Assembly (NCBI GenBank): GCA_963780165.1
Contig: CAWABB010000001.1
Span: 1,816,556 to 1,880,555 of the forward strand
Source: an uncultured Ignavibacteria bacterium
GTDB lineage: Bacteria; Bacteroidota; Ignavibacteria; UBA10030; UBA6906
Length of the DNA: 64,000 bases
Direction: 5' to 3'
Every line of letters begins with the position of its first letter. The stretch's first letter is position 1. Shown here piece after piece: positions 3,188 through 57,897 of this stretch. The translations under genes were made by a program, and so were the position numbers. Below the pieces are notes generated by a model. The model searched no databases, had not been told where the DNA came from, and saw only the letters and a program-made list of their open reading frames with translations.

Positions 3188-3242
3188 GCGGACGGGCAGA
3201 CATTATGTAAACAAATAAACTAAGAACGCGCGCCAGAGTCAA

Positions 3243-3284
3243 TCAGAAATGCGAAGCCCCGTCCTGCTGACGCCGGCCGGGGCT
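3243..3284 (-). terminator. Candidate rho-independent terminator downstream of the cytochrome/Cyc2 operon.
   Basis: AGCCCCG...CGGGGCT forms a 7-bp GC stem (3255-3261 / 3278-3284). On the minus-strand transcript it is followed by a U-rich run (UCGCAUUUCUGAUU). It sits 30 nt after the stop of the 3316..3753 gene. The loop is long, so the call is weak. Confidence 0.35.
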
Positions 3285-3315
3285 CCTGGTGCCAATGTTT
3301 CAGACCCTGACACGG

Positions 3316-3753
3316 TCAGTTGTTCTTCGCCCCCTGATTCACCCACTCGGTGATGATGCCGATGTCCCCGTCCGACAATGGCTTGATCGGCTCCTTCTTC
3401 CGCTTCTTGCGGGGATCAAAGGGCATCCGGTCGCCGAACGGCGGATTCTCCAGAAGCTTCTGCACGAAGACGCTCTCCGATGCCTTCCCCGGCTTAACCA
3501 AATCTCCGTGTTTCCCGCCTTTCATCAGCAGATCATACGAGTCGAGCGACAGCTCGCTCGGATTAAACTGCTCCTCCGCATGGCACGGCATGCAGTTCCT
3601 GCTGATGATCGGGACGATGTCTTGCGAGAATGATACGGGCGGGCGGACCTTCGGAGTATCCACTCTTTCCACGCCCTTCTCCTGCGCCCGCGCAGCAACC
3701 GCCCAGCCCACCACGAGCAGCGCCAACACACACCAACGATGACGTTCTCTCAA
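3316..3753 (-). CDS. Periplasmic monohaem c-type cytochrome, PSCyt1-like domain.
   Basis: It has a signal peptide (MRERHRWCVLALLVVGWAVAARA) and a single CXXCH motif (CMPCH). The C-terminus shows the pattern ...GG.HGDLVKPG...S.....L....FGDRMPF...LSDGDIGIITEWVNQGA, which resembles the Planctomycete-type cytochrome c (PSCyt1) domain. It is a paralogue of the C-terminus of the 4979..5683 gene. Confidence 0.7.
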   Translation of the reverse strand: MRERHRWCVLALLVVGWAVAARAQEKGVERVDTPKVRPPVSFSQDIVPIISRNCMPCHAEEQFNPSELSLDSYDLLMKGGKHGDLVKPGKASESVFVQKLLENPPFGDRMPFDPRKKRKKEPIKPLSDGDIGIITEWVNQGAKNN

Positions 3754-3764
3754 CGCGCCCTCCC

Positions 3765-4886: not shown

Positions 4887-4978
4887 GGTCGTCCCTTTCG
4901 GTCCTGGAGGTGGAATGCACGACACGGGAGGCGGGGAAATATACCTACCCCCCGTGTGTGATTCAACACAACCGACCA

Positions 4979-5683
4979 CTAGTTATTCAGCGCGCCCTGA
5001 TCGACCCAGGTACGGATGGTCGTGATACTCGCGTCCGGCAGGAACGGACCGCCCTGCGGCATGCGGGCACCGAAAGGCGGGTTCGGTGAGATCTTCTTCA
5101 CGAGGTTCGAGCCGGCTCCATCGCCAGGCACGATGGCCGGTCCATGGTTGCCGCCTCTGAGCAGGTCGGCAACCGTTTCCACCGTCAGCCCGTTGGTGCC
5201 GCCGTGGCACCCTGTGCAGCCGTGCTGCACCAGCAACGGGTGAACATCCTGCGAGAAGGAGACCTGTGTCGTCCCCGCCTGAACCGTTACTCCGACGGCA
5301 TTCGAGTTCGCGGAGATCCCGCCCGCCGTCACGGCGCGCACACGATAAAAGTAGCGCGCGCCGGTGGTGAGCCCGGTGATCGTGAGGGAGGTCGCAATTC
5401 CGGCGTCGCGGTTGTTGTAGCCGGCAAGGAACGAGCCGAACAGCGAATCCTGAGAGACGTCGAGGCGATAACCCGTAGCCCCGCTGACGGCGCTCCACCT
5501 TGCGGTGAAGCTTGAATCGGTGACGCCCGTCGGCGAGCCGGCGGTGGGGACGCCGGTGTCGGGCGGAGTAGCGGGGTTGGTGCCCGAATCGCTGCACCCC
5601 GCTGCCAGCAGCATCAGTCCGGCCATTGCTGCCAGAAGCGGGGACGCAGTCGTCGACCCGGCGGAGGATCGAACGATGAACAT
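4979..5683 (-). CDS. Lipoprotein with an FN3-like domain fused to a C-terminal monohaem cytochrome c (PSCyt1-like).
   Basis: Lipobox LLAAGC. The central part has a fibronectin-III-like segment (...GYRLDVSQD...TGLTTGARYFYRVRAVTAGG). The C-terminus has CTGCH plus ...GG.HGPAIVPGDGAGSNLVKKI...FGARMP...ITTIRTWVDQGA, homologous to the 3316..3753 gene. The ATG at 5681-5683 lies 17 nt after the CHRD gene stop. Confidence 0.7.
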   Translation of the reverse strand: MFIVRSSAGSTTASPLLAAMAGLMLLAAGCSDSGTNPATPPDTGVPTAGSPTGVTDSSFTARWSAVSGATGYRLDVSQDSLFGSFLAGYNNRDAGIATSLTITGLTTGARYFYRVRAVTAGGISANSNAVGVTVQAGTTQVSFSQDVHPLLVQHGCTGCHGGTNGLTVETVADLLRGGNHGPAIVPGDGAGSNLVKKISPNPPFGARMPQGGPFLPDASITTIRTWVDQGALNN

Positions 5684-5699
5684 GTGGTGGTGCCTCCTG

Positions 5700-7616
5700 T
5701 TATTTGAGTATGAGCATGCGTTTCGTGAGCGATGGGCCGCTGCCCGCATCCAGCCTGTAGAAATAGACGCCGCTGGAAAGTCCGCGCGCGTCAAAGGTGG
5801 CCAGGTAGGTCCCGGCCGGGCGCACGTCATCAACAAGTGTCGCGACCTCCTGCCCGAGCAGACTGTACACCTTCAGCGACACCCGACCGGGCTCCGGAAC
5901 CTGGAAGCGGATCGAGGTTGACGGATTGAAGGGGTTGGGATAGTTCTGATCCAGCGAAAAGGCTGACGGTAGAGCCTCCTCAACCGGCGCAACGGATGTC
6001 ACCGCGTCTGAACCGAAACGCACCTGTCCGCGGATCTCACCTCCCGGATGGGCGGCCGTATGGAAGTTAGCATAGATGCGACCAGCCAGCAAGGAATCCA
6101 CGAGCGCCCGGGTCAACGGCTGCGACGGGCTGTTCGTGGACCAGTTGTCCGCAATCGTTGCCGACGCAGGATCGCTTGCCCCGGCAATGTTCCGCACCAC
6201 GGGCCCGTTCACACCGACCGGCGCCGCATGGAAGTGCCCGCCGATCGAAAGCGGTCCGGAGAGGCCATAGTACGTAATTGCATAGCCAATGTCTTGACGT
6301 TCCGCATTCAGCACCACGGATCCCGCCCCGCGCCCCGCGGTTGCGACGGCAGGAACTTCCTGATCCCCGTCAAGCATGATGGTGAACCCCACGCCGGTGG
6401 TGAGATGCACCTGGTCTCTGATTTCGCCGGCCGGGTTCGCCGTCGTGTGGAAGTTTACGTAGATCCTCCCTGCCAGCAGCGCCTCCACCAGCGCGACTGT
6501 CAGCGGCTGGGAGTCGGTGGTCGTCCACGTCCCTGCATACGTGGCAGAAGCAGGGCCGCCGCCATTCGCTACACCGCGCACGACCGGCCCGGATTGCCCC
6601 TGATCGCCCGTATGGAAGTGTCCGCCGGCGGTCAGCGGCCCGGTCAGGCCGAAGTAGGTAATCTCGTAGCGCAATTCATTCCGCGCATCGTTCAGCGTGA
6701 ACGACCCGGCCCCTTTCCCGTCTGCGGTCACCGTCCCGGGTTCGTTAGAAGCTTCGAGCCACGAGAAGAAGCTCGTGCCGCCCTGGAGTTCGAGCTGGCC
6801 CCGGATCTCCCCTCCGGGATTCGCGGCGGTATGGAAGTTCACGTAGAGGCGCCCGGCAATGAGCGAATCCGCGAGCGCCGGTGTGAGCGGCGTGCTGTCC
6901 GTGAACTTCCAGCTTCCCTTGATGGCGTCCGCTGCGGGACCCCCGCCCGACGCGATTCCGAGCGCCACGGGCCCCGATACCCCACGAGCCCCCGTATGAA
7001 TGTGGCCGCCCGCACTGAGTGAGCCGCTCAGGTCGCGATAGGCCAGGTAGTAATCGAGCTGCGATCTGTTTGGAGATAGGATGAATACGCCCGTCCCCAT
7101 GGCGTCGGTCGTCACAGGATTCGGTTCCTGCGCCCCGGAGAGGTGCGCGGTGAAGTGCAGGGCTGTCGCAAGCGTGACCTGGCCCCGGATTTCGCCCGCC
7201 GGATTTGAGTTTGTATGGAAATTCACGTAGACCCGGCCGGTGAGCAACGACTCAACAAGTGCCGGTGTGAGCGGCTCTGTGTCGGTGCTCCGCCAGACTC
7301 CCGTGATGATCCCCGACGGCGCCGCCCCCGCCTCTGCAATGCCTCGCATGGCGGCGCCGTTTGTTCCCGGGGACCCCACGTGAAAATGCCCGCCCACCGA
7401 GAGCGCGCCTGTCAGCCCCTGATAGGAGATCACATACGCAAGCTCGGTGAACGTCTCATTCAGCGAGAACGAACCTGAGCCCGTCCCTGTGACGGCGGAG
7501 GGGGGAACGCTCTGCGCGCCGTTCAGCGTTGCCGAAAAGTGGATCTGCGCGTTCGCCGGGCCCGCCCCAGCAAGCACGAGAGCGATCAGCACCATGGTGT
7601 ATCGGAATCGAGTCAT
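5700..7616 (-). CDS. T9SS-secreted protein with four tandem CHRD domains.
   Basis: It has a signal peptide. Four modules of about 150 aa each carry the CHRD signature (GGH[FI]H.G..G..GPV...I.......G.W...D..PLT.ALV..LL.GR.YVNFHT..[NH]P.GEIRGQ). The C-terminus (NYPNPFNPSTSIRFQVPEPGRVSLKVYSLLGQEVATLVD...GVYFYRL) is a Por/T9SS C-terminal sorting domain. Confidence 0.8.
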   Translation of the reverse strand: MTRFRYTMVLIALVLAGAGPANAQIHFSATLNGAQSVPPSAVTGTGSGSFSLNETFTELAYVISYQGLTGALSVGGHFHVGSPGTNGAAMRGIAEAGAAPSGIITGVWRSTDTEPLTPALVESLLTGRVYVNFHTNSNPAGEIRGQVTLATALHFTAHLSGAQEPNPVTTDAMGTGVFILSPNRSQLDYYLAYRDLSGSLSAGGHIHTGARGVSGPVALGIASGGGPAADAIKGSWKFTDSTPLTPALADSLIAGRLYVNFHTAANPGGEIRGQLELQGGTSFFSWLEASNEPGTVTADGKGAGSFTLNDARNELRYEITYFGLTGPLTAGGHFHTGDQGQSGPVVRGVANGGGPASATYAGTWTTTDSQPLTVALVEALLAGRIYVNFHTTANPAGEIRDQVHLTTGVGFTIMLDGDQEVPAVATAGRGAGSVVLNAERQDIGYAITYYGLSGPLSIGGHFHAAPVGVNGPVVRNIAGASDPASATIADNWSTNSPSQPLTRALVDSLLAGRIYANFHTAAHPGGEIRGQVRFGSDAVTSVAPVEEALPSAFSLDQNYPNPFNPSTSIRFQVPEPGRVSLKVYSLLGQEVATLVDDVRPAGTYLATFDARGLSSGVYFYRLDAGSGPSLTKRMLILK

Positions 7617-7645
7617 GTGTGTCTCCAGTCTGGTTGCAGCTGTGG

Positions 7646-7852
7646 TTAGGCCGACCGTTTCGCGGTCGTGACCTTGAGCAATGCGTACAGCGGGCAGAAT
7701 CCGGCGGCACCCGTCACGAGCAGCACGACAGCCACGATCCCGAGGATCACGGCAGTCGGGCCGGTGAGCTGTCCACCCATGATCAACACTCCGATCGCAA
7801 GTGCGACGAGCGTCCGGATGACACGGTCCGCCGAGCCGACATTCTTTGTCAT
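7646..7852 (-). CDS. DUF2892 (YgaP-like) small inner-membrane protein.
   Basis: 68 aa with two TM helices. Conserved ADRVIR...G.......LTG..GFCPLYALL motif. It is the first gene of the operon and has a GGGGGGA ribosome-binding site. Confidence 0.65.
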   Translation of the reverse strand: MTKNVGSADRVIRTLVALAIGVLIMGGQLTGPTAVILGIVAVVLLVTGAAGFCPLYALLKVTTAKRSA

Positions 7853-7975
7853 TTCAGTCCCCCCAGAAAAAGGTTTGCGTACTGCGTTGATTCAGTTGCT
7901 GTCGCCGTCCTGATCTTCGTCGGGGAAGGCCTTCTCAAACGACCTTTTGATGTTGTCTTCGACCATCCTCGCAGG

Positions 7976-7991
7976 GTCAAGCACCGTGCCA
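7976..7991 (-). promoter_or_regulatory. Putative sigma54 (-24/-12) promoter reading toward the DUF2892/CHRD/Cyc2 operon.
   Basis: The minus strand reads TGGCACGGTGCTTGAC. This matches TGGCACG-N4-TTGMW, with GG at -24 and TTG at -12. The single mismatch is GA in place of the conserved GC. It lies about 125 bp upstream of the DUF2892 start, and a sigma54 activator is encoded adjacent. Confidence 0.45.
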
Positions 7992-8100
7992 CACCGGGAG
8001 GCGCGCAGGCCGGCATGAACATGGCGGAAATGGCTGATACGGTGCGGGTCCGGGGGGGAACGGGGATTTCAGGCCGCACCCCGGGTACGGAGATGGGCGA

Positions 8101-8128
8101 CCCGGTGTGGCGGCCGTGCCACACCGGG
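8101..8128. promoter_or_regulatory. Perfect inverted repeat CCCGGTGTGGC-N6-GCCACACCGGG, a candidate enhancer (UAS) for the adjacent NtrC-family activator.
   Basis: The arms are 11 bp with a 6-bp spacer. It lies about 115 bp upstream of the putative sigma54 promoter, relative to minus-strand transcription. The half-site GCCACACCGGG recurs at 7988-7998, overlapping the -24 element. Confidence 0.45.
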
Positions 8129-8223
8129 GAGAGGCTCAACGAAAGCCACGATGGAGCTCGCAAGAGACCGGGAGATGGTCTTTGGGAGACTGGGCTGAAG
8201 CGCGCAAAAGGCTGCGGCAGCGC

Positions 8224-9639
8224 TTACGCGCGATATGTGGCCGGGTCGATCGAGTGCTCGGCGAGTTTGCGGTACACGGTCTTCCTGTCCACCTCCATCA
8301 GCCGCGCTATCTGGTTGATGTTGCCCCGATGCTCCCGCATGAGCCGGAGCAGGTATCGCTCCTCGGCGACGCGCACAATCACCCCGAGATAATCGCGGTA
8401 CGGAATATCGAGGCCGGGGACGGCGGGTTGCTCATCTCCCGCGAGCGCGTGATCGGCGGCACCGGGGAGTTCGAGGTGCGTGATCGTGTCGCCGGGCGTC
8501 TTGAGCAGCGCACGCTTGATCAGGTTCTCGAGCTCGCGGACATTCCCGCGCCAGGGATGCGCAACCATCTCGCCGATGACGTCAGGACTGATGGAGGTGA
8601 CGCGCCCACCAGCAAGGTGGGCGTGAAGCCGCAAGAAATGCTCCGCAAGCAACGGGATGTCCTCCACGCGCTCGCGCAGTGGCGGAAGCGTGATCGGAAA
8701 CACGTTTAGACGGTAGAAGAGATCCTCGCGGAAATCTCCCGCAGCAACCATGACATCAAGATTGCGGTTCGTTGCGGCCACGACACGGGTGTCGACCGTA
8801 ACGGTCTTCCCTCCGCCGACGCGCTGGAATGTCTTTTCCTGCAGTACCCTCAGGAGCTTCCCCTGCAGCGCTGGCGGCATCTCCCCGATCTCATCCAGGA
8901 AGAGGGTCCCCGTGTCTGCCTCCTCGAACTTCCCGGTCCGCTGCCTGTCGGCTCCCGTGAACGAGCCCCGCTCGTGGCCGAACAGCTCGCTTTCCAGCAG
9001 TTGTTCCGGCAGCGCCGTACAGTTCACGGCAACGAACGGGCTCGACTTCCGTCTGCCGTTGAAGTGCAGCGCACGCGCGACAAGCTCCTTCCCGGTTCCG
9101 CTTTCACCAAGGATCAACACGGTCACGTCGGTGTCGGCAACCTGCGTGATCTGGGTGATCACGTCCCGTATCCCGGGGCTGCGGGAAACCATCCCGCCCA
9201 GACTGTACTTCGTCTGGACGGCGTCCCGCAGCGACCTGAGCTCGAGCTCCCGGAACTGCTGATCCAGAGCCCGGCGGATCTTGATCGACAGCTCCTCATT
9301 GTTGGACGGTTTGGTCAGGTAGTCGATGGCGCCGAGTCGCATGGCTTCCACCGCCGTCTGGATGGAACCGAATCCCGTCACCATGATCACAGGCAGGTCA
9401 GGCCACTGCTGCTTGACGATGCGAAGAAGGTCGATGCCACTTCCGCTCCCCATCACAAGATCGGAAAGGAGCAGGTCACATCGCTGGGCAGCGAGGATAT
9501 CGAGCGCTTTCGTGACGCCGTCGGCCAGCGTCACCTTGTAGCCCTCGTCCTCGAGCACGGTGCGGGTCGCCAGCCGGAAGGCTCCGTCGTCATCCGTCAC
9601 AAGGATGTGTTCTCTCGGGCGTGCGTCAGTGTGTGTCAT
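8224..9639 (-). CDS. Sigma54-dependent response regulator (NtrC family; REC-AAA+-HTH).
   Basis: Receiver domain (ILVTDDD...DLLLSDLVMG...). AAA+ sigma54-interaction domain (GESGTGKELVARALH, GAFTGA-like SFTGA). C-terminal Fis-type HTH. Its start overlaps the stop of the upstream kinase. Confidence 0.9.
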   Translation of the reverse strand: MTHTDARPREHILVTDDDGAFRLATRTVLEDEGYKVTLADGVTKALDILAAQRCDLLLSDLVMGSGSGIDLLRIVKQQWPDLPVIMVTGFGSIQTAVEAMRLGAIDYLTKPSNNEELSIKIRRALDQQFRELELRSLRDAVQTKYSLGGMVSRSPGIRDVITQITQVADTDVTVLILGESGTGKELVARALHFNGRRKSSPFVAVNCTALPEQLLESELFGHERGSFTGADRQRTGKFEEADTGTLFLDEIGEMPPALQGKLLRVLQEKTFQRVGGGKTVTVDTRVVAATNRNLDVMVAAGDFREDLFYRLNVFPITLPPLRERVEDIPLLAEHFLRLHAHLAGGRVTSISPDVIGEMVAHPWRGNVRELENLIKRALLKTPGDTITHLELPGAADHALAGDEQPAVPGLDIPYRDYLGVIVRVAEERYLLRLMREHRGNINQIARLMEVDRKTVYRKLAEHSIDPATYRA

Positions 9640-11209
9640 CGTGCGCGTCTCCGGACGGCAGCGTGATCGTGAGCCGTGTTCCCTTGCCGGCTGTGCTCTG
9701 GACGGTGATCGTGCCGCCGTGCTGGTGAACGATTCCGTGGGTGACCGAGAGGCCGAGGCCGACCCCGCTTACCTCTTTCTTTGTAGTGAAAAAGGCGTCG
9801 AAAATGCGATGAAGGTGTTCGGGAGGGATGCCCGTGCCGGTGTCGTCCACACGGACCACGAGGTTGCCTCCCTCCGCCCGCGCCCCGATCGAGATCGTCC
9901 CACCATGCGGCATCGCATCCCGCGAGTTCAGAAGAAGATTCAGGAACACCTGCTTCAGCTTGTCCCGGGATCCGCGGACTGCAGGGAGTCCGGGGCCCGC
10001 CGATACGTCGATCGAGATACCCTGCCCTGCGAACGATTCCCGGTACATGCGAACAACGTCTTCCACGAGGTCCATCACGTTCACCGGTGAGCGCTCCACC
10101 CGGACCGGAGCGCCGCGGTACATGTCCAGCATCGCCCTCGTCAATCCCGCAAGGCGGTTCACCTCGTCCAGCGCCACCGACACCAGCTCGTGCGCCGGAT
10201 CATCGGCGCGGATTTTCCGGAGCGATGAAGACAGGAGGCTCTGGATGTTATGGACGGGGTTGTTGATCTCGTGCGAAAGCTGGGCGGTCAGCGTGCCAGT
10301 CAGCGCGAGGCGCTCGCTGCGCACGAGGTCTTCCTGTGTCCTGCGCAGGCGCTCGAGTGCCTCTTCGATGTCACGATTCTTCCGCGACAGCTCACGGTTG
10401 GCGTGATCGAGCTCGCCGATCTTCTGCCTGAGCGAGAGACGCATGTCGTCGAACCTTGCCGCAAGGAACCCGAGCTCGTCTCCCGCGTCCGTTTCCTCCG
10501 CCGCCCGAGGGGTGGCAGACTCGAGGTCGCCCTTGCTGATCGCGCGGGTCGCCGCAACCAGCCGGTCCACCGGCCTGGTGACAAACCGCGTGAACATGAA
10601 CGACGAGACAAAGATGACGAGCCCCGTGAATCCCAGGAAGATGAGGAGCGACCGTGTCCAGTTCGCCCTGGTCGCGGCGGTCATATCGGCGAACGAAACG
10701 CTGAGGTCGGCCGCGCCAAGCGTGTAGCCCACGGGCACAGCATGGCACTCCTGGCAGGTCTTTGTTGCAGTGAACGGGATGACCCCTCGGAACCGATCGC
10801 CCGCCCGAACGAACTCGGGGGTTCCGCTCTCCAGTGCCTTCCGCGTCATCGGGTCGCGCGCACCGATGTCGACGAACCGGCGGCTGGTGGCGACCTTCGG
10901 CACCGCAGGCTGCGCTTCCTTGCGCAGCCGGAGGTCATTCACCACGAGCCGCACCGTCTCGAACCGCTCGATGGTATTCACCCGCTCGATAAACGCAGTA
11001 TCGACTTCCAGATTCGTCACCATCATGCTGACCAGGGATTCCCGGAGGATGTCGGCATGTGTGTGGGCGGACAACTGTGCCTGCTCCACCATTTCGCGCT
11101 CCTGGAACCGGTTCTGGAGGAGCACGCTAACCGAGATAAACAGGAGGAACAGGGGGAGAATCCCCAGGAGAATCTTCCGGGAGAGCGGCAGACGCTGCAG
11201 AACGTGCAT
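9626..11209 (-). CDS. Sensor histidine kinase with a periplasmic CXXCH (haem-c) containing sensor domain.
   Basis: N-terminal TM, a periplasmic domain of about 170 aa containing TKTCQECHAVPVGYTLGAADLSVSF, a second TM, HAMP, HisKA (LSHEINNPV) and HATPase_c. The periplasmic module may be Tll0287-like/DUF3365 (haem-c PAS-like), but this is unconfirmed. The likely start is the ATG at 11207-11209. Confidence 0.85.
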   Translation of the reverse strand: MHVLQRLPLSRKILLGILPLFLLFISVSVLLQNRFQEREMVEQAQLSAHTHADILRESLVSMMVTNLEVDTAFIERVNTIERFETVRLVVNDLRLRKEAQPAVPKVATSRRFVDIGARDPMTRKALESGTPEFVRAGDRFRGVIPFTATKTCQECHAVPVGYTLGAADLSVSFADMTAATRANWTRSLLIFLGFTGLVIFVSSFMFTRFVTRPVDRLVAATRAISKGDLESATPRAAEETDAGDELGFLAARFDDMRLSLRQKIGELDHANRELSRKNRDIEEALERLRRTQEDLVRSERLALTGTLTAQLSHEINNPVHNIQSLLSSSLRKIRADDPAHELVSVALDEVNRLAGLTRAMLDMYRGAPVRVERSPVNVMDLVEDVVRMYRESFAGQGISIDVSAGPGLPAVRGSRDKLKQVFLNLLLNSRDAMPHGGTISIGARAEGGNLVVRVDDTGTGIPPEHLHRIFDAFFTTKKEVSGVGLGLSVTHGIVHQHGGTITVQSTAGKGTRLTITLPSGDAHDDTH

Positions 11210-11331
11210 GGAACGGCCGGTAATTGGTGGACGGCGACGGCTGATTCGGCTCAAGGTACCTGTTTGACGAAAGAGAATCAAAAAACAGCCTTCTTGAACC
11301 TCCACATTCGGATGCCTATATTATAGATTCG

Positions 11332-16280: not shown

Positions 16281-16988
16281 CTAGTCGCAGCACCCTCCGT
16301 GAGGAGCGGCCGGCAAGGGAGCCGCAGGGCTGACATACGGAATTCCCAGACCGAGCCCCCGCACAATCAACAACACGCCCAGCAGTGCGCCGAACCACGG
16401 GAGCATTGCGACGAGCTTCATCCTGAAGGAGCCCGGCAGTTTGTATCCCGCCATCGACAACCCCAGCATGATGGGCACAGTACCCGTGCCGAAGCCGGCC
16501 ATGAACATCACTCCGCCGGCCTCGGAGCCGGTCGTAGCCGCGCCGGCGAGCGCCGCCACAACGAACCCACACGGGAGAAAGCCGTTCAGCACGCCTACCA
16601 GAAACAACGCGAACAGCGACCGGCGTCGGAACAGCGAGCCCAGCGCGTCAGTCATGCGCCTCTGCACGGCATCGGCACCGGGGACACGGGGAAGGAAGCG
16701 GCGTGCAACCGCCGGGGCGAGGGATGTAAGAATCAGGAATGCGCCGAGAACAATGGAAAGGGCCTGCTGGTAGCCGAGAAGCGCGATGCCTCTGCCGATG
16801 GCGCCGACCACGAGGCCCAGCAGAGCGTATGTCACAATACGGCCGCTGTTGTAGGTAAGTCGACCTGCGAGGAGCGGCCATGCGGTCTTCCCGCCAGTTG
16901 GCAGCGCAAGCGCGATGGGCCCGCACATCCCGGCACAATGCACGCTTCCCATGACGCCGACAAGAAATCCCGATACAATCTCCATCAC
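16281..16988 (-). CDS. DsbD_2/TauE-like membrane protein associated with cbb3 oxidase maturation.
   Basis: Multi-TM protein with an HCAGMCGP motif near the N-terminus. It is the last gene of the cco cluster. Confidence 0.6.
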   Translation of the reverse strand: MMEIVSGFLVGVMGSVHCAGMCGPIALALPTGGKTAWPLLAGRLTYNSGRIVTYALLGLVVGAIGRGIALLGYQQALSIVLGAFLILTSLAPAVARRFLPRVPGADAVQRRMTDALGSLFRRRSLFALFLVGVLNGFLPCGFVVAALAGAATTGSEAGGVMFMAGFGTGTVPIMLGLSMAGYKLPGSFRMKLVAMLPWFGALLGVLLIVRGLGLGIPYVSPAAPLPAAPHGGCCD

Positions 16989-16995
16989 GGAGCCC

Positions 16996-17451
16996 TCAGT
17001 TCAGAACGACTTTCGCCTCTTCATAGTACTGCGCTCCGCCGGCGAGCCATTCGACCTTCACCGTCCAGAGCCCGGGGTGCAGCCACGGTGATTCAATACG
17101 CATCGTTCCGGACGAGTCCAGGCTGAGCGGCGCGGCAAAATCCATCGCGCGGTCCGACGGACGGTAGAGCGTCACGGTTCCGTTCACCTCGCCGGACCGA
17201 GCGACCCCGGGGATCATGATCGTCACGCCGCCGGTCGTTCCGCTCACCGTCATCAGGGCGCCCGAGGATCGCGCACGCTGGATGCTCTGAATCCGCCCCT
17301 CGTACTCGAGCCCCCGCTGGTAGTAGTCGTCCGCGACCAGGTCGGTCGGGCTCGAGAGCGCGATCCAGACCATCACTGCCAAGCCCACACCGAAGATCGC
17401 GAACGCGATCACGATCCCGGTCCCCCAGTTCAATGTGCGCGCCGCGTTCAT
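16996..17451 (-). CDS. ccoH: FixH/CcoH-family protein.
   Basis: Single N-terminal TM plus a FixH-like periplasmic domain. ATGA overlap with ccoG. Confidence 0.65.
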   Translation of the reverse strand: MNAARTLNWGTGIVIAFAIFGVGLAVMVWIALSSPTDLVADDYYQRGLEYEGRIQSIQRARSSGALMTVSGTTGGVTIMIPGVARSGEVNGTVTLYRPSDRAMDFAAPLSLDSSGTMRIESPWLHPGLWTVKVEWLAGGAQYYEEAKVVLN

Positions 17452-18893
17452 CGCTGCACCCCCGGACCGAGAAACGAGGTGTGAATCGTATGGAGCTTCT
17501 TCCCGTCCGCGTACACGCCAACGGTCAACGGTGTGCTCAGGCCCGTAAGCTGCTCGCGCTGCAGCAGAATCAGCAGCTTCGATTCCGCGATCCCCTGTGG
17601 CTCCGCCGCCAGGTCACCGCCCATGACCTCAATCTGCCCTTCCGTCTCCTCGAGGATGAACGTAACGGGCACTTTCACGAATGTCTTGTTCAGGACCTTC
17701 ACGTCGTATACGTTGCTGACCCTGCCGTCCGGGCGGTCCTGATAGAACATCCCCGGAGTACGGAGAACCGTCACATCGACCTCGCTCCGATTGGCCAGCA
17801 AAACAGTAAGGACGCTCACGAGGAGAAGCAGCACCACCGAGTATCCGATGACGCGGGACGTCCAGAGGCGCGACGTGCCGGTGGCGATCGCCGTGGCGGA
17901 GTCGTACCGTACGAGCCCACGGGGTTTCCCGATCTTGTCCATCACGGTGTCGCAGGCGTCGATGCATGCGGTACAGTTCACGCATTCCAGCTGCGTGCCG
18001 TTGCGGATGTCGATTCCTGTCGGACAAACCTCCACACACTGGTCGCAGTCGATGCAGTCGCCCTTCGTGCGGTCAGTGCCCCGGCGGAGCCTGCCCCGGG
18101 GTTCGCCGCGACGATAATCATACCCGATCACGATAGAGTTCTTGTCGAGGAGCACGCCCTGCAGCCTGCCGTACGGACAGACCAGGATACACGCCTGCTC
18201 GCGGAACCACGAGAAGATCCAATAGAACACCGTGCTGAAGATGAGCATCGCCGTGAGCCCGCCGATATGCCTGAAGGGCGGGTCGGTCACGATCGTCCAG
18301 AGCTGATCGGTCCCGATGATCCAGGCGAGCAGGGTGTTGCCGATAGCGAAGGCCAGCACGGCGTAGATGAGAAACTTCGTCCCCTTGCGGAGAAGCTTCT
18401 GGCTGTTCCAGGGGGACTCGTTCAGCCGGCGCTGCTGTCGGTGGTCCCCCTCCACCCAGTAGTCGATCTTGCGGAACACCATCTCCATGAATACGGTCTG
18501 CGGACAGACCCAGCCACAGAAAAGGCGCCCGAAGACGACCGTGAAAAGAATGATGAAGACGATCGTTGTGATGAGCGCTATGGCGAGCAAATAGAAGTCG
18601 TGGGGGCCGAACACGGTGCCGAACAGGATGAATCTCCGTTCGAGGATGTTGAAGAGGAAGAACGGCGTGTCGTGCATGCGGACGAACGGCATGCCGACGA
18701 GGAAGGCCAGGAGGAGAAAGCTCAGGATCGTGCGCCACCGGTAGAAGCGGCCAGACGGCTGCTTGGGATAGATCCAGCTCCGCTTCCCCTGTTTGTTGAC
18801 GATGGTCATCGAGTCACGGAAGCTCTCCGTGGCCTGACCCGGCTCCTCCGCCGCCCCCTCGGCCCGTACCGTTCCCCCGTCTGTGTCTCCCAT
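17448..18893 (-). CDS. ccoG: cbb3 oxidase accessory protein CcoG/FixG (4Fe-4S ferredoxin).
   Basis: TM helices plus two ferredoxin cysteine clusters (CILVCPYGRLQG; CIDCDQCVEVCPTGIDIR). Confidence 0.85.
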   Translation of the reverse strand: MGDTDGGTVRAEGAAEEPGQATESFRDSMTIVNKQGKRSWIYPKQPSGRFYRWRTILSFLLLAFLVGMPFVRMHDTPFFLFNILERRFILFGTVFGPHDFYLLAIALITTIVFIILFTVVFGRLFCGWVCPQTVFMEMVFRKIDYWVEGDHRQQRRLNESPWNSQKLLRKGTKFLIYAVLAFAIGNTLLAWIIGTDQLWTIVTDPPFRHIGGLTAMLIFSTVFYWIFSWFREQACILVCPYGRLQGVLLDKNSIVIGYDYRRGEPRGRLRRGTDRTKGDCIDCDQCVEVCPTGIDIRNGTQLECVNCTACIDACDTVMDKIGKPRGLVRYDSATAIATGTSRLWTSRVIGYSVVLLLLVSVLTVLLANRSEVDVTVLRTPGMFYQDRPDGRVSNVYDVKVLNKTFVKVPVTFILEETEGQIEVMGGDLAAEPQGIAESKLLILLQREQLTGLSTPLTVGVYADGKKLHTIHTSFLGPGVQR

Positions 18894-19727
18894 TTATCCG
18901 GTTGCCTTTGTGCTATCGGCCGGAGCGGCATTCACGGCGGGCTCGACGTACAGCGTTCCCTCCTGCTTCTTGGCATTCGGGGGGGCTGTTCCCTGCAGCG
19001 ACAAGACGTAACTGGCGATTTCCTGTATCTGCTTTGGCGTAAACACCAGCTGCCAGCTGATCATGCCTTTTGCCGCCACACCGTTCTTGATGGTTGCATA
19101 CACGTTTGAGATGGCACCCCCGTGAATCCAGTACTGGTCGGTGAGGTTGGGCCCCACCACGCCCTGCCCCTGGGGACCATGACAGGAAACGCAGTACTTG
19201 CCGAACGCTTCTTTGCCGCGCCCGAGGGCTCCCGGGTCCACGAGCGCCGCGAGCGCGTTCTCGTCGATCGCACCTTCTTTCGCGATCATCATCCGCCGCT
19301 GGAGATCCGCCGCCGCGACCTCCTGCCGGTACTCCTCGACCATGAGCGGCGAACTCCCGAGCACATGATAGCTGATCATATAGGTCGCCCCGAAGACGAT
19401 TGTCCCCAGGAAGAGCGTTGTGAACCAAGGAGGTATGCGGTTGTCCAGCTCCCGGATGTTGTCATACACGTGGTCGGGCATTTCGGCGTCGGCGGACTTC
19501 CCGGCAAGCGCATAGCGCCGCAGGAAGGCGAACGTCGCACCGAGCCGTTTCCGATCGGCCTCCGGGAGCACGAGGAGAAAGAAGAGGATCGCGATGATGA
19601 TGATCGTGGTTGTCGCGGTAAGGTTCAGCGCGAAGGTGGTGCCCGGATCCCCGGACCCCGCCGCGAACGCGGCGCCGGTGGGCATGATGGGAAGGGTCAT
19701 CATCAACATACGTCGCAGTGTTGTCAT
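18894..19727 (-). CDS. ccoP: cbb3-type cytochrome c oxidase subunit III (CcoP), monohaem variant.
   Basis: N-terminal TM/FixP_N-like region and a single CVSCHGPQGQG haem site. The ATG at 19725-19727 overlaps the ccoQ stop. Confidence 0.8.
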   Translation of the reverse strand: MTTLRRMLMMTLPIMPTGAAFAAGSGDPGTTFALNLTATTTIIIIAILFFLLVLPEADRKRLGATFAFLRRYALAGKSADAEMPDHVYDNIRELDNRIPPWFTTLFLGTIVFGATYMISYHVLGSSPLMVEEYRQEVAAADLQRRMMIAKEGAIDENALAALVDPGALGRGKEAFGKYCVSCHGPQGQGVVGPNLTDQYWIHGGAISNVYATIKNGVAAKGMISWQLVFTPKQIQEIASYVLSLQGTAPPNAKKQEGTLYVEPAVNAAPADSTKATG

Positions 19728-19912
19728 AGTCTCACTTCCTTTCCGCGCACGCTGTCATCGTCGAACGGGAGCCGCTCACAGTGGTCGATCCGCTCACGCG
19801 TGATATGGAACACCCGGACGACAATCAGGAGGAAGGCCAGGACCGAGAGTATGAGAGATACCTGGCCGATGTACTCCGAGCCGGTCAGGGATGAAAGATA
19901 GTGTGAGATCAC
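19724..19912 (-). CDS. ccoQ: Small cbb3 oxidase subunit (CcoQ-like).
   Basis: 62-aa single-TM peptide (VISHYLSSLTGSEYIGQVSLILSVLAFLLIVV...) with a GTG start. It lies between ccoNO and ccoP. Confidence 0.5.
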   Translation of the reverse strand: MISHYLSSLTGSEYIGQVSLILSVLAFLLIVVRVFHITRERIDHCERLPFDDDSVRGKEVRL

Positions 19913-19928: not shown

Positions 19929-22043
19929 TTACCGCTTCGCGCCTTTGATGTCGGTGCCCAGGCGCTGCAGGTACGCAATGAGGGCGATGATCTCCTTCTG
20001 CGGATCCGCCGGCGCCCCGGCCTTGGTGATGTCCGTCGCGAGCGCCTCGGCTTGAAGCTTGAGGTCCTCAACAGCGCGCTCATCGTAGCCGGCCGGGTAC
20101 GGAACGCCGAGCGACTGCATGGCCCGGATCTTTGCAGCGGTCGAACCGACATCCAGATCCTGCGACAACAGCCAGGGGTATGCCGGCATGATGGATCCTG
20201 GTGACATGGAGGTCGGCTCGTTCATATGGAGGTAGTGCCAGAGATTCGGAAACTTGCCGCCGACGCGATGGAGATCAGGCCCTGTCCGTTTGGACCCCCA
20301 GAGGAACGGATGGTCGTAGACAAATTCCCCGGCCTTCGAGTACTCGCCGTAGCGCTCCGTCTCCGACCGGAACGGGCGCACCATCTGGGAGTGACAGTTG
20401 TTGCACCCCTCGCGGATGTAAATGTCCCGTCCCTGGAGCTCCAGCGGCGTGTACGGCTTCACGCTGGAGATGGTGGGGATGTTGCTCTTTACGACGTAGG
20501 TGGGGATGATCTCGACCAGGCCGCCGATCAGGATCAGCACGAGCGCAAGGACAGTGAACTGCGCCGGTTTCCGCTCGATCCAGCGGTGGCGGGATTCCTT
20601 CGGACCGTGATGATCGGCCGCAAGCGGCGCTGCAGCAGCTTCGACGGAGGCCTCAAACTTTCCCTGACGGGCCGTTTTGACCAGGTTGTACGTCATCACC
20701 ACGACGCCGCCCAGATACAGGGTTCCCCCGAAAGCCCTGATCGTCCAGAACGGGACGATCTGCAGGACGGTTTCTAGGAAGTTCGGGTACTGCAGGGTTC
20801 CAAAGTCCGTGAACTGCTTCCACATCAGGGACTGTGTCAGGCCGGAGGTGTACATGGCCACCGCGTAGAACACGATGCCGAGCGTCCCGATCCAGAAGTG
20901 GAGGTTTGCCAGCGTGCGGGAATAAAGCGTCGTCCCGTACAGTTTCGGCACCAGCCAGTAGAGCATCCCGAACGTGAGGAACCCGTTCCAGCCAAGGGCC
21001 CCGACGTGCACGTGCGAGATGATCCAGTCTGTGTAGTGCATGATGGCGTTCACGTTCTTGAGCGAGAGCGCCGGGCCCTCGAACGTCGCCATCCCGTAGG
21101 CGGTAACCGCAACCACCATGAACTTCAGCACGGGGTCCTCACGCACCTTGTCCCATGCTCCCCGGAGCGTCAGCAGACCGTTGATCATGCCGCCCCACGA
21201 CGGGGCGAGCAGCATGACCGAGAAGACCGTACCGAGCGACTGCGCCCAGTCCGGCAGGGCCGTGTAGAGCAGATGGTGCGGGCCCGCCCAGATATAGATA
21301 AAGATCAGCGACCAGAAGTGGATGATGGAGAGCCGGTAAGAGTAGACCGGCCGGTCAGCCGCTTTCGGGAGGAAGTAATACATCAGCCCAAGGAACGGGG
21401 TCGTGAGGAAGAACGCCACCGCGTTGTGCGCGTACCACCACTGGACCAGCGCATCCTGCACGCCCGCATACAGGGGGTAGCTCTTCATGATCGACGCGGG
21501 CAGCTCAAACGAGTTCACGATGTGCAGAACGGCGACGGTGACAATCGTCGCGATGTAGAACCAGATTGCCACGTACATGTGGCGTTCCCGCCGTTTGACC
21601 AGGGTGCCGAACAGGTTGATGGCGAAGACCACCCAGACCAGCGTGATCGCGATGTCGATGGGCCATTCCAGCTCCGCATACTCCTTGCTGGTCGTGAGTC
21701 CCAGCGGGAGCGTCAAGGCGGCGGAGACGATGATCCCCTGCCAGCCCCAGAAGTGGATCCACCCCAGCAGCCTGCTGAACATCGGCGTCTTGCACAGGCG
21801 GGGAAGTGAATAGTAGATGCCCGTGAAGACCGCGTTCCCCACGAAGGCAAAGATCACGGCGTTCGTGTGCAGCGGCCGGATGCGGCCGAAGGTGATGTAC
21901 TGGAGGCCGGCGTTGAGCGAGGGGATGAACAGCTGGAAGGCGATGATGACGCCGACCAGCATCCCCACAAGGCCCCAGACGACCGTCGCAATGGTGAACG
22001 CGCGGACGATCGTGTTGTCGTATCGGAAGCGTTCGAGTTCCAT
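19929..22043 (-). CDS. ccoNO: Fused cbb3-type cytochrome c oxidase subunits I+II (CcoNO).
   Basis: Haem-copper oxidase subunit I with 12 TM and His ligands, fused to a monohaem CcoO (CNNCHSQMVRPF...WHYLHMNEP). The likely start is the ATG at 22041-22043 (MELERFRYDN...). Confidence 0.9.
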   Translation of the reverse strand: MELERFRYDNTIVRAFTIATVVWGLVGMLVGVIIAFQLFIPSLNAGLQYITFGRIRPLHTNAVIFAFVGNAVFTGIYYSLPRLCKTPMFSRLLGWIHFWGWQGIIVSAALTLPLGLTTSKEYAELEWPIDIAITLVWVVFAINLFGTLVKRRERHMYVAIWFYIATIVTVAVLHIVNSFELPASIMKSYPLYAGVQDALVQWWYAHNAVAFFLTTPFLGLMYYFLPKAADRPVYSYRLSIIHFWSLIFIYIWAGPHHLLYTALPDWAQSLGTVFSVMLLAPSWGGMINGLLTLRGAWDKVREDPVLKFMVVAVTAYGMATFEGPALSLKNVNAIMHYTDWIISHVHVGALGWNGFLTFGMLYWLVPKLYGTTLYSRTLANLHFWIGTLGIVFYAVAMYTSGLTQSLMWKQFTDFGTLQYPNFLETVLQIVPFWTIRAFGGTLYLGGVVVMTYNLVKTARQGKFEASVEAAAAPLAADHHGPKESRHRWIERKPAQFTVLALVLILIGGLVEIIPTYVVKSNIPTISSVKPYTPLELQGRDIYIREGCNNCHSQMVRPFRSETERYGEYSKAGEFVYDHPFLWGSKRTGPDLHRVGGKFPNLWHYLHMNEPTSMSPGSIMPAYPWLLSQDLDVGSTAAKIRAMQSLGVPYPAGYDERAVEDLKLQAEALATDITKAGAPADPQKEIIALIAYLQRLGTDIKGAKR

Positions 22044-22050
22044 GCGTTCC

Positions 22051-22227
22051 TTACGATAGATGATGATTCGAGTCCCGCGGCGCGGGATTCGGCTCGTCAA
22101 ACAACATGCGTATAGATGGCGTCACGCGGTCATCGTACTGCCCCGACCGGACCGCCCAGAGGAACGCCAGGAGAAATCCTCCCGCGAGCATCAGGCTGGC
22201 TCCGATCATGACCGCGATGACGGACAT
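22051..22227 (-). CDS. ccoS: cbb3 oxidase maturation protein CcoS/FixS.
   Basis: 58 aa (MSVIAVMIGASLMLAGGFLLAFLWAVRSGQYDDRVTPSIRMLFDE). It is absent from the ORF track because it is under 60 aa. It lies between ccoI and ccoNO. Confidence 0.75.
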   Translation of the reverse strand: MSVIAVMIGASLMLAGGFLLAFLWAVRSGQYDDRVTPSIRMLFDEPNPAPRDSNHHLS

Positions 22228-24626
22228 CAGGCAATCCCTTTGCGTCGCGCCGCAATCCGCACCGACATGGTGGAGAGCAGCACGACGGTGATGGAGCTGA
22301 GCGGCATAAGGATAGCCGCCACCACGGGGGAAAGATCCCCGCGAACCGCCACCCAGAGCACCGCCGCATTATACAGAAATGAAACCGCAAAACTCACGAG
22401 CACGATGCGCACCGCGGCCCGGGACAGATCCAGAAACGCCGGGAGCAGATGGAACGAGCCTCCGTGCAGAATCCCGTCGCTGGCCGGGGTGAACCGGGCT
22501 GCATCCTCCGACACCGCGATTCCCACGTCCCCTTCCTTGAGCGCCACGGCATCGTTCAATCCGTCGCCAACCATCATCACGACTGCTCCTTCTTTCCGGA
22601 GTCCGCGAATGTGTTCGCGCTTCTCAGCCGGCGACTTCCCGAACTGCATCTCGACATTTCCGCCCAGGACGGCCTGCAGCGGGCGCCTGTCCCCCGCCGT
22701 GTCGCCCGAAAGCAGCCCGAGGCGATACCGCCCTCGCAGGGACGCGAACACTCTCTCGAGTCCATCGCGAAACCTCGTCCGGGCGACGAAGATCCCCCGC
22801 GTGGTGCCGTCTACGCCAACGGCCACGTGTGTCCGCCCGGGCATTGGCCCATCCGCACCCGCTACGAACCGCGACGATCCGAGCCGAACGGCATGCCCGT
22901 CAACCGTTCCCTCGATGCCTTCGCCGGGAATTTCGCAGAACTCCTCGACGGTTCCCGTGGCATCACCCTGGAGCGCGGCTGATAGCGCGCGGCTGAGAGG
23001 ATGCGACGAGTGCTGCGCCAGCGATGCCACCAGAACCGCATCCTTCCGCGACAACCCCACTCCCTCGAACTGCAGCCCGACTCCGCCGGCACACGTCAGC
23101 GTGCCGGTCTTGTCGAAGAGAATCGTCGTGACGCGGGCGAGCTGCTCCACCACTCCAGCGTTCTTCAGGTAGAATCCTTTCCTGCCGAACAGCCGCATCA
23201 TCGTCCCGAACGCAAACGGCGTCGCCAGCGCGAGCGCGCATGGACATGCAACAATCAGGACCCCGGTGATGGCGTCAAGCGCAATGCCCGCATCGCGCGG
23301 GAACCAGTACAGGCCTGTGAGCCCCGCACCAAGCAGGACGCCCGCGGTGAAGTACCTCGCCACCGTGTTCGACACCGTGACCAGGCTCCGGGATTCGTCT
23401 CGCTGATCGCCGTGCTCGTTCCACAGGCTCGTCAGATAGCTCTGCGAGACCTCCCGCACGACCTCAAGCTCGATCGCGCCACCGCGCTGCCGACCGCCCG
23501 CATGCACCAGGTCGCCGACAACGCGCTCGACCGGCGTCGATTCCCCCGTCACAAAACTGTAGTCGATGAGCCCGCGCCCGTACATCATGACGGCGTCGGC
23601 GGGGACGATGTCGCCGTTCCGGACCACGACGCGCTCGCCGACCATAAGCTTGGATACCGGCACCGGACGCTCGCCGTCCTGATTACGTACCGTCACGGCC
23701 AGCGGGAAGTACGCCTTGTATGTGCGCTCGAAGTTGAGCGTGTCGTACGTCTTGGCCTGAAACAGCTTCCCGAGGAGCAGGAAGAACACCAGGCCGCTCA
23801 TCGAATCCAGGAATCCCGGTCCTGCACCCGAGACGATGTCGAACAGGCTCCTTGCGAACAGGATAAGGATCCCCAGCGCGATCGGCACATCGAGGTTGAC
23901 GATCCCACGCTTCAACCCTCCGGCCGCGGAGAGAAAGAACGCTTGTGAACTATACAGGAGCACGGGCAGGGACAGGGCAACATTCAGCGCCGAGAACAGC
24001 TTGCCCAATTCCGATTCCCCGCCGGCGAAATACTCGGGGAAACTCAGGAGCATGATGTTGGCGAAGCAGAATCCCGCTACGCCCACGCGCGCGTAGAGAG
24101 CGGCCATCGGCTGTGCCGGTGCGCGCCGCTCGGGAGAGGCAAACGAGAGCTCGGGCTCGTATCCGAGCGAGGCAAGAAGCTCGACGACGTTCCTGAGTGT
24201 CGTATCGCCGTTGAACCTGATAAAGAGCTGTCTCTTGAGAAAGTCCACGCGTGAATGGACAATTCCTGGGTCCAGGGCGTGCAGGTTCTCGAGCAGCCAT
24301 ACGCACGAGGCGCAATGCATCCCGGGAACAGTCAGCGTGGTGGTGTGAGTTGTGCCGTCGGTGAAATCGAGCAACCCTGCAACCACTTCGGGATCGTCAA
24401 GATACGCGTAGCGCGCGTCGCCGCCGAACCGGGGAGTCAGGCCCGGGGATTCCTCGCGCCGGTAATAGTCTCCCAGCCTGTGGCGCTCCAGCAAATCGTA
24501 GACCGTTTTGCACCCTTGACAACAGAACGCTTTCCCGTCGCCCTGAGGCACATCGCTCGGGACAGGATCGCCACAATGAAAGCAGCTCGTCTGGGGTGAG
24601 ACTGCCTCGGCGTGAGGAAGGGGCAT
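22227..24626 (-). CDS. ccoI: Copper-translocating P1B-type ATPase CcoI/FixI.
   Basis: Cys-rich N-terminal metal-binding region (CFHCGDPV, CCQGC), CPC motif, DKTGTLT and GDGxND motifs. Confidence 0.9.
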   Translation of the reverse strand: MPLPHAEAVSPQTSCFHCGDPVPSDVPQGDGKAFCCQGCKTVYDLLERHRLGDYYRREESPGLTPRFGGDARYAYLDDPEVVAGLLDFTDGTTHTTTLTVPGMHCASCVWLLENLHALDPGIVHSRVDFLKRQLFIRFNGDTTLRNVVELLASLGYEPELSFASPERRAPAQPMAALYARVGVAGFCFANIMLLSFPEYFAGGESELGKLFSALNVALSLPVLLYSSQAFFLSAAGGLKRGIVNLDVPIALGILILFARSLFDIVSGAGPGFLDSMSGLVFFLLLGKLFQAKTYDTLNFERTYKAYFPLAVTVRNQDGERPVPVSKLMVGERVVVRNGDIVPADAVMMYGRGLIDYSFVTGESTPVERVVGDLVHAGGRQRGGAIELEVVREVSQSYLTSLWNEHGDQRDESRSLVTVSNTVARYFTAGVLLGAGLTGLYWFPRDAGIALDAITGVLIVACPCALALATPFAFGTMMRLFGRKGFYLKNAGVVEQLARVTTILFDKTGTLTCAGGVGLQFEGVGLSRKDAVLVASLAQHSSHPLSRALSAALQGDATGTVEEFCEIPGEGIEGTVDGHAVRLGSSRFVAGADGPMPGRTHVAVGVDGTTRGIFVARTRFRDGLERVFASLRGRYRLGLLSGDTAGDRRPLQAVLGGNVEMQFGKSPAEKREHIRGLRKEGAVVMMVGDGLNDAVALKEGDVGIAVSEDAARFTPASDGILHGGSFHLLPAFLDLSRAAVRIVLVSFAVSFLYNAAVLWVAVRGDLSPVVAAILMPLSSITVVLLSTMSVRIAARRKGIA

Positions 24627-56838: not shown

Positions 56839-57897
<1,059 letters not shown>

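Follow-up and report, generated by a model that had tools for sequence, protein, structure and literature searches.

The window analysed here, a 64,000-nt stretch of contig CAWABB010000001.1 from an uncultured Ignavibacteria bacterium, carries on its minus strand a gene for a protein of four tandem CHRD domains, which lies between the gene of a small inner-membrane protein and three c-type cytochrome genes and is preceded by a two-component system of the sigma-54 type (Table 1). An earlier note on this DNA had proposed that the four domains are exported by a Por-type C-terminal domain and, being encoded between a DUF2892 gene and the cytochrome genes of a Cyc2 operon, serve as a surface-exposed partner of the outer-membrane cytochrome. 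The domain composition was confirmed, as the Pfam CHRD model (PF07452) aligned to four stretches of the 638-aa protein, at profile positions ~1-117 each, with a score far beyond chance (347 bits against a cut-off of 24.1, E = 5.4e-105). The repeats are ~128 aa long, shorter than the ~150 aa first estimated, show pairwise identities of 47-50% and have in common the motifs GGH[FI]H, PLT, Y[VA]NFHT and GEIR. The route of export was also as proposed. Two models of the type IX secretion system (T9SS) scored above their cut-offs, Por_Secre_tail (PF18962, residues 559-634, 31.1 bits against 27 in Pfam) and the type-A sorting domain TIGR04183 (38.8 bits against 23 in NCBIfam), which together span residues 559-635 of 638, and a sequence search of PDB matched the same region to the sorting domain 8glj_D (E = 7.6e-4). 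At the other end, the Sec signal peptide reads MTRFRYTMVLIALVLAGAGPANA and would be cleaved before Q, leaving a mature N-terminal Gln; this residue, Q24, is nearly invariant among 94 orthologues. These signals point to Sec export and sorting by the T9SS, and the protein is predicted to be tethered at, or released from, the cell surface.

The same architecture, four CHRD domains followed by a T9SS sorting domain, is common. A protein search returned 2,611 proteins at E <= 1e-10, and the best 120 of these 2,611 matches were mostly 630-650 aa long, 50-60% identical and derived from Bacteroidota, Ignavibacteria and KSB1 metagenome-assembled genomes (MAGs). Relatives with six and with eight CHRD repeats were also retrieved. 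Nothing sets the window protein itself apart within this large family, whose annotation is "CHRD domain-containing protein".

We then compared the repeats of the 94 orthologues. Alignment showed that an H-x-H pair (H77/79, H205/207, H333/335 and H461/463 in the window protein) is invariant in every repeat, and so are an N-x-H pair (N132/H134 and its equivalents), one Trp and one Tyr. When all repeats of the orthologues were pooled, the columns at least 97% invariant were H.H....G..G, W, T, S, Y.N.H and GE.R. A conserved candidate ligand site, sought by the earlier note in the motifs GGH[FI]H and YVNFHT, is indeed present, since H-x-H and N-x-H are kept in all four repeats throughout the orthologue set. 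The site residues account for 12 of the 17 His of the window protein, which has no Cys. The six- and eight-repeat relatives likewise keep AH[FI]H and Y.N.HT in each repeat. Repeat 1 was the only one that was clearly position-specific, with a same-position identity of 0.67 compared to 0.52-0.55 across positions.

An AlphaFold model of the protein, built with high confidence (pLDDT, the score of the predicted local distance difference test, 91; predicted template modelling score, pTM, 0.80), folds each repeat into a beta-barrel of eight strands and one helix resembling that of superoxide dismutase (SOD). Loops 4-5 and 7-8 are ~7 residues long each and the zinc and electrostatic loops are absent; the sorting domain is modelled as a beta-sandwich (566-636), and the linker before it (aa 539-558) has low confidence. 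When the entire four-domain model was used as Foldseek query against PDB the output was noisy, the matches to Cu/Zn SODs being the only specific ones (6dtk and 6zs1, probability 0.99). The model shows the SOD-like fold of the four CHRD repeats. In each modelled barrel, strand 4 bears H-x-H at its C-terminal end, strand 7 bears Y-x-N-x-H and strand 8 GEIRG. Of the SOD1 copper ligands, H46 and H48 sit where strand 4 ends and H120 where strand 7 ends, and the fourth, H63, belongs to loop IV together with all the zinc ligands, loop VII being the electrostatic loop (PMC13017621). The three invariant His of each repeat occupy the strand positions of SOD1 H46, H48 and H120, an equivalence taken from strand order and not from measured geometry. 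A residue-level alignment to the SOD copper ligands was tried by comparing profiles with SOD1 and with four SOD sequences, and was rejected as none of the comparisons was significant; because of this, the equivalence with the SOD site rests on strand positions. From the model we infer that each barrel has an open, solvent-exposed candidate site where SODs bind copper, made of three His and close to Asn or Tyr. Copper would be its most likely metal.

The genes around the CHRD gene are arranged as the earlier note had it, with the YgaP-like (DUF2892) gene before and three c-type cytochrome genes after. The first of these, for a lipoprotein, is preceded by the ribosome-binding site AGGAGG and begins 16 nt past the end of the CHRD gene, and a gap of 92 nt with a sigma-70-like site (4938-4966) precedes the porin-cytochrome gene. 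Upstream, a 370-nt intergenic region between the sigma-54 regulator gene and the YgaP-like gene contains both a perfect palindrome and a sigma-54 promoter-like site, the latter beside the gene of a predicted sigma-54 activator. The palindrome may serve this regulator as an enhancer, or else may terminate transcription of the regulator gene. Its left arm and first four loop bases (CCCGGTGTGGCACGG) are repeated at the promoter-like site, and its half-sites GTGTGGC/GCCACAC, 6 nt apart in the window, recur at the equivalent place in two other loci (L-numbers denote other loci; L081 9536-9561 and L082 6878-6897). The sigma-54-type pattern occurs twice in the 64 kb of the window, where 0.27 matches would be expected, and similar sites are found upstream of the CHRD unit in L081, L083, L084, L085 and L094. 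The second match in the window, TGGCAC-N5-TTGC, lies at 57723-57737 (+). In NCBIfam, the response regulator appeared AtoC/NtrC-like, below equivalog cut-offs, and there was no model for the window cytochromes or the YgaP-like gene. A simple scan did not support an intrinsic terminator after the cytochrome cluster. On the same strand, 9-17 kb upstream of the CHRD/cytochrome cluster, the genes of a cbb3 oxidase occupy 16281-24626.

Table 1. Features of the CHRD/cytochrome locus and of the cbb3 oxidase cluster (positions in the 64,000-nt window)
Feature	Position	Strand	Basis and remarks
Soluble periplasmic PSCyt1 monohaem cytochrome c (CMPCHAEE)	3316..3753	-	Pfam; last gene of cluster
Cyc2-like fused monohaem cytochrome-porin, 373 aa	3765..4886	-	Signal peptide, ALPRFSSRTGAKCQSCH, 16 predicted beta-strands
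Lipoprotein monohaem cytochrome c	4979..5683	-	Lipobox LLAAG then C; Fn3; PSCyt1 haem domain (GCTGCHGG)
Four-CHRD open reading frame (ORF)	5700..7616	-	638 aa; ORF call and translation
T9SS type-A sorting domain, aa 559-638, and stop codon	5700..5942	-	PF18962, TIGR04183, 8glj_D, model
CHRD repeat 4, aa 410-538; H461, H463, Y515, N517, H519	6003..6389	-	Same basis as repeat 1
CHRD repeat 3, aa 282-409; H333, H335, Y386, N388, H390	6390..6773	-	Same basis as repeat 1
CHRD repeat 2, aa 153-281; H205, H207, Y258, N260, H262	6774..7160	-	Same basis as repeat 1
CHRD repeat 1, aa 24-152; H77, H79, Y130, N132, H134	7161..7547	-	Pfam, repeat alignment, orthologue alignment, model
Signal peptide, aa 1-23 (...GPANA then QIHF)	7548..7616	-	Read from sequence
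YgaP-like_TM (DUF2892), 68 aa, two-helix inner-membrane protein	7646..7852	-	Pfam PF11127, E 1e-20; first gene of unit
Sigma-54 -24/-12 promoter-like site TGGCACGGTGCTTGA (TGGCAC-N5-TTGA)	7977..7991	-	~125 nt upstream of YgaP-like start codon
Perfect 11-bp inverted repeat CCCGGTGTGGC-N6-GCCACACCGGG	8101..8128	.	~110 nt upstream of sigma-54 site
NtrC-type sigma-54-dependent response regulator (receiver, AAA+ sigma-54 activator, Fis-type helix-turn-helix)	8224..9639	-	Pfam Sigma54_activat, E 7e-73
Sensor histidine kinase (HAMP, HisKA, HATPase_c)	9626..11305	-	Pfam; true start may be an internal ATG near 11209
DsbD_2 protein (cbb3 cluster)	16281..16988	-
CcoG-like (cbb3 cluster)	17448..18893	-
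CcoP (cbb3 cluster)	18894..19727	-
Fused CcoN-CcoO (cbb3 cluster)	19929..22100	-
CcoI-like P-type ATPase with HMA domain (cbb3 cluster)	22227..24626	-

Elsewhere in the window, a seven-transmembrane (7TM) receptor, whose 7TMR-HDED domain is extracellular and whose HD hydrolase domain is intracellular, is encoded directly downstream of the cytochrome cluster (890-3187, minus strand), a position kept in L081 and L171. Two further T9SS cargo genes (26611-32175, plus strand) encode proteins of 905 aa (PKD and Por_Secre_tail) and 946 aa (SBBP beta-propeller and Por_Secre_tail), in a stretch where the G+C content falls from ~0.62 to 0.56-0.58. Four long ORFs (715, 421, 402 and 652 aa; 36243-40938 and 54298-56256, both plus strand) had no Pfam match at E <= 1e-5.

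The porin-cytochrome required closer classification. Cyc2 has been described by Keffer et al. as a protein of at least 365 aa with a signal peptide, a single N-terminal CXXCH and a 16-strand OprO/OprP-like porin, in which AxPxFAR[Q/K][T/Y] is found upstream of CXXCH and PxL downstream (PMC8406198). The window protein has this architecture, its one CXXCH being CQSCH at residues 36-40, and its model (pLDDT 75) matched best to OprP (2o4v, E = 1e-11) and OprO (4rjw) in Foldseek, the same templates reported for Cyc2. A PDB sequence search with it gave no match. Its sequence, ALPRFSSRT...CQSCHVNPSG, belongs to a family with the consensus ALPRFAxRT and departs from the canonical motif, and an exhaustive profile search found PxFAR[QK][TY] in 0 of 133 more distant relatives, which have PR[FY][AS]xR[TY] instead. 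Lacking this family-defining motif, the protein was not accepted as a canonical Cyc2. We call the protein Cyc2-like because the Cyc2 architecture is present and the family motif is absent, and the "Cyc2 operon" of the earlier note is to be corrected in this sense. The Cyc2-like family comprises 1,979 cluster representatives at 50% identity (E <= 0.001).

Conservation of the gene neighbourhood was assessed in the 15 orthologue loci with enough flank, using as control 74 loci around unrelated T9SS cargo genes of the same phyla, out of 80 loci recovered with back-translated patterns that included the T9SS motif DQNYPNPF. A c-type cytochrome gene adjoins the CHRD gene in 11 of the 15 (L002, L081, L082, L083, L086, L087, L088, L099, L166, L167 and L168). 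By comparison, a CXXCH-containing ORF was next door in 3/74 control loci (Fisher p ~1e-8, not corrected for phylogeny), and none of the 74 had a PSCyt1 or Cyc2-like homologue. In 10 of the 11 linked loci it is a PSCyt1 cytochrome that immediately follows the CHRD gene; L166 differs in having a Cyc2-like gene and a PSCyt1 cytochrome gene upstream. All the downstream cytochromes that were read (L081, L082, L083, L167 and L168) have, besides the lipobox ..GC[KRSN]D.G.[ED]P, GC[TY][GD]CHGG as haem motif. A Cyc2-like gene (36-86% identity) is present within 8 kb of the CHRD gene in five loci (L081, L082, L088, L166 and L168). The idea that the partner is the outer-membrane cytochrome is borne out as regards a cytochrome neighbour, but the tightest partner is the downstream PSCyt1 lipoprotein and not the porin-cytochrome. 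Other elements of the window also recur: the sigma-54 kinase/regulator pair (L081, L082, L083, L086, L088, L094 and L168), the YgaP-like gene, immediately ahead of the one for CHRD (L081, L082, L085, L086, L165 and L168), and the soluble PSCyt1 orthologue after the Cyc2-like gene (L081, L082, L088, L168 and L170). The gene set persists through varying gene order (L082, L083, L088/L168 and L166). The earlier note had named two findings that would speak against its idea, a lack of CHRD-cyc2 linkage in related genomes and a lack of conserved candidate ligands; both were looked for, and neither was obtained.

Cytochromes were also the commonest flanking Pfam families of more distant CHRD genes (29-45% identity, 72 loci), with six Cytochrome_CBB3, five Cytochrom_C, four cytochrome c', three b561 and two MtrC-like cases, and two more Cyc2-like genes neighbour such CHRD genes (L108 and L133). 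Single-domain CHRD genes (~140-190 aa) flanked by a gene for a membrane-anchored dihaem cytochrome c (~310 aa) form a second, different CHRD-cytochrome cluster (L152, L154, L157, L158, L159 and L160, loci related to one another), and in L154, L158, L159 and L160 a cytochrome c' (~150 aa) flanks the CHRD gene as well. In L168 (5013-6419), L169 (6551-7966) and L170 (6627-7487), the gene directly upstream of either the CHRD unit or the Cyc2-like gene encodes a cation diffusion facilitator (CDF) transporter, and L083, L168 and L170 share a small membrane cytochrome of the Haem_bd family (PF14376).

How these observations fit together can be proposed with some reserve. We favour, tentatively and at somewhat short of even confidence, the reading that the protein displays four open metal sites, probably for copper, on the cell surface and acts there, together with the cytochromes, on superoxide or Fe(II). 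The T9SS would place the four SOD-fold barrels at the outer face of the cell, each offering one open mononuclear metal site formed by His-x-His of strand 4 and Tyr-x-Asn-x-His of strand 7. The CHRD gene would probably be transcribed from the sigma-54 promoter under control of the adjacent histidine kinase and NtrC-type regulator, in one unit with the genes of the YgaP-like membrane protein and the lipoprotein monohaem cytochrome c, and those of the Cyc2-like porin-cytochrome and the soluble cytochrome c would follow this unit. The four sites could act on small redox-active species that arise where the outer-membrane cytochrome meets O2, either superoxide from Fe(II)/O2 chemistry, by dismutation or oxidation, or Fe(II) itself, and could thereby either shield the cytochromes from damage or hand electrons on to the lipoprotein cytochrome. 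The role suggested by the earlier note, that of a partner at the surface in metal or redox chemistry, is still something that we infer. Weak side hints of a role in reactive-oxygen chemistry may be seen in the occurrence of b561 and cytochrome c' genes beside other CHRD genes and in a CHRD protein of Polynucleobacter that is induced together with an adjacent catalase-like peroxidase. A more specific version, which by analogy we consider possible but improbable, is a bacterial counterpart of the Cu-only SOD repeat proteins (CSRPs), that is, a T9SS-displayed array of four open copper sites that would turn over superoxide or Fe(II) and be wired into the respiratory chain via the lipoprotein cytochrome c and the Cyc2-like porin-cytochrome. 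If this were true, bacterial CHRD would form a class of its own, not recognised before, among extracellular metalloprotein domains with a redox function that work with cytochromes.

Several results weigh against the proposed array of metal sites. The Sod_Cu hidden Markov model (PF00080) did not match the window protein at E up to 10, and hhalign of the CHRD-repeat profile against SOD1 was not significant; an eight-repeat relative reached 22.7 bits with Sod_Cu, below the cut-off of 28.9. Cu/Zn SODs have a zinc loop (H63, H71, H80 and D83), an electrostatic loop and an intramolecular disulfide. None of the three is found in the window protein, in which three of the four copper ligands have counterparts, and a conserved fourth His matching the bridging SOD1 H63 was absent from the repeats of the 94 orthologues. 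The clustering of the His side chains is deduced from the modelled strand positions. A type-2 copper site of three His is a poor electron-transfer centre, and the literature searched contained no measurement of metal binding or activity for any bacterial CHRD protein. As for the genomic linkage, four of the 15 orthologue loci (L001, L084, L089 and L165) have no cytochrome neighbour, and the loci are phylogenetic kin (50-85% identity), so that the synteny is partly inherited and the counts overstate the independent support. The excess among distant CHRD genes is weak (10/72 compared to 3/74 control loci, p 0.045), several of the loci being interrelated. When the look-up was reversed, no CHRD gene lay within 8 kb in 3/3 Cyc2-like loci (L169, L170 and L171). 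One of these CHRD-free loci belongs to the same genome as L083, ~1.2 Mb from its CHRD gene. L171 is syntenic with window positions 890-13300, with genes for HAD, ACPS, kinase, sigma-54 regulator, Cyc2-like protein, 7TM-HD receptor and integrase in the same order, and has an extracytoplasmic function (ECF) sigma-factor gene in place of the YgaP-CHRD-Fn3-cytochrome genes. Because all three reverse look-ups lacked a CHRD gene, we regard the CHRD and lipoprotein-cytochrome pair as an optional module, which is often, not always, placed with the Cyc2-like and soluble-cytochrome module under one sigma-54 system.

Among other explanations, the one that fares best, although we think it unlikely, is a non-catalytic surface binder, in which CHRD would adhere to, or provide a scaffold for, polyanions, exopolysaccharide or the surfaces of minerals, the polar cluster would be a ligand patch, and the protein would position the cell or its cytochromes on the substrate. 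The four CHRD domains of chordin are free of metal and bind glycosaminoglycans such as heparan sulfate, adhesins are frequent among T9SS cargo, two neighbouring cargo genes of the window encode PKD and beta-propeller domains, and a pTM of 0.80 would suggest a fixed, chordin-like assembly of the four domains. However, the glycosaminoglycan site of chordin is made by Arg residues across domain interfaces (PMC13382577), and the invariant His, His, Asn, His and Tyr of the bacterial repeats are exactly the residues that chordin lacks; in the profile alignment of the CHRD repeat with chordin (E = 5e-8) the H-x-H and N-x-H residues are missing. A His triad absolutely invariant in 94 x 4 repeats is also more typical of metal or catalytic sites.

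Less probable still is extracellular metal capture or buffering, whereby the open His sites would bind Cu, or Fe/Zn, and either supply the cbb3 oxidase and cupredoxins or sequester the metal from the cytochromes with no redox turnover. The CcoI-like P-type ATPase of the cbb3 cluster, a cupredoxin gene beside the regulator in L083 and the CDF transporters mentioned above would agree with such a function, and sites of the Cu-only SOD type bind Cu weakly and are loaded outside the cell (PMC13017621). But the CHRD gene has neither a TonB receptor nor an importer linked to it, the conserved partner is a cytochrome and not a transporter, and the histidine kinase had no specific match to the metal-sensor equivalogs of NCBIfam. 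As improbable as metal capture is inherited synteny, an unrelated surface role that merely shares a sigma-54 regulon or chromosomal neighbourhood in one clade. Against the facts that every linked locus comes from one Bacteroidota/Ignavibacteria-like group, that the CHRD module is missing from L169, L170 and the syntenic L171 and that cytochromes are missing at four orthologue loci stand a gene set kept through at least four different gene orders, a lipoprotein cytochrome gene 16-110 nt after the CHRD gene, independent distant CHRD genes that adjoin other cytochrome classes (cytochrome c', dihaem c, b561, MtrC-like and Cyc2-like) and the low count in the controls.

The CHRD domain was described in 2003, and in the literature searched we found no bacterial CHRD protein with a tested function and no paper linking CHRD with Cyc2. 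As far as this literature shows, three things are new: the recurrent association of the CHRD gene with that of a lipoprotein cytochrome c and with Cyc2-like clusters, the cluster of three His that the bacterial repeats appear to keep at the SOD copper position and that is missing in chordin, and the possible parallel between bacterial CHRD repeats and CSRPs. The candidate His3(+Asn/Tyr) site, the lipoprotein PSCyt1 partner and the sigma-54 two-component context give a first testable clue to the role of CHRD in bacteria, and one that is cheap to test. The Cyc2-like family is very large and the relatives of the window protein occur in Bacteroidota and Ignavibacteria MAGs, hence a conserved surface accessory would matter for reading iron-cycling potential from metagenomes. 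Should the sites bind copper and turn over superoxide, they would represent a prokaryotic parallel to CSRPs.

Taking known systems in turn, the gene cluster resembles Cyc2 iron-oxidation clusters in its monohaem cytochrome fused to a 16-strand OprP/OprO-like porin, in the adjacent small periplasmic cytochrome c and in the cbb3 oxidase nearby, and differs from them in its periplasmic cytochromes, which are of the PSCyt1 type, and in its sigma-54 two-component control. In Acidithiobacillus, the cluster cyc2-cyc1-cox-rus includes the copper protein rusticyanin. If CHRD binds Cu, the window would likewise have a copper protein in the same cluster, although the candidate here is extracellular and of the SOD fold whereas rusticyanin is a periplasmic cupredoxin.

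Chordin is a member of the same Pfam family, and crystal structures of its four CHRD domains (2026; PDB 9RD6, 9IGM and 9QVV) are SOD-like, with no metal and without the SOD loops (PMC13382577). It has in common with the window protein four tandem SOD-like barrels and the GE[IL]RG motif on strand 8. In contrast, chordin is an animal regulator of bone morphogenetic proteins (BMPs) without metal, H-x-H or N-x-H, and the window protein keeps both pairs.

The closest functional analogue, on present comparison, would be the eukaryotic group of Cu-only SODs and CSRPs. These are exclusively extracellular, surface-tethered proteins without zinc or electrostatic loop, in which tandem SOD repeats, 4-12 per chain in CSRPs, have open Cu sites (PMC13017621). 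The window protein resembles them in its predicted SOD-type eight-strand barrel without zinc site or electrostatic loop, hence with an open site, in the modelled positions of its His residues, with His-x-His on strand 4 and a further His on strand 7, and in its predicted location outside the cell, where a T9SS sorting domain would take the place of the glycosylphosphatidylinositol (GPI) anchor of eukaryotes. Unlike Cu-only SODs, it has no bridging His (H63 in SOD1, H93 in SOD5), no disulfide and no significant Sod_Cu similarity, and it has an extra helix between strands 6 and 7, is bacterial and is encoded beside cytochromes.

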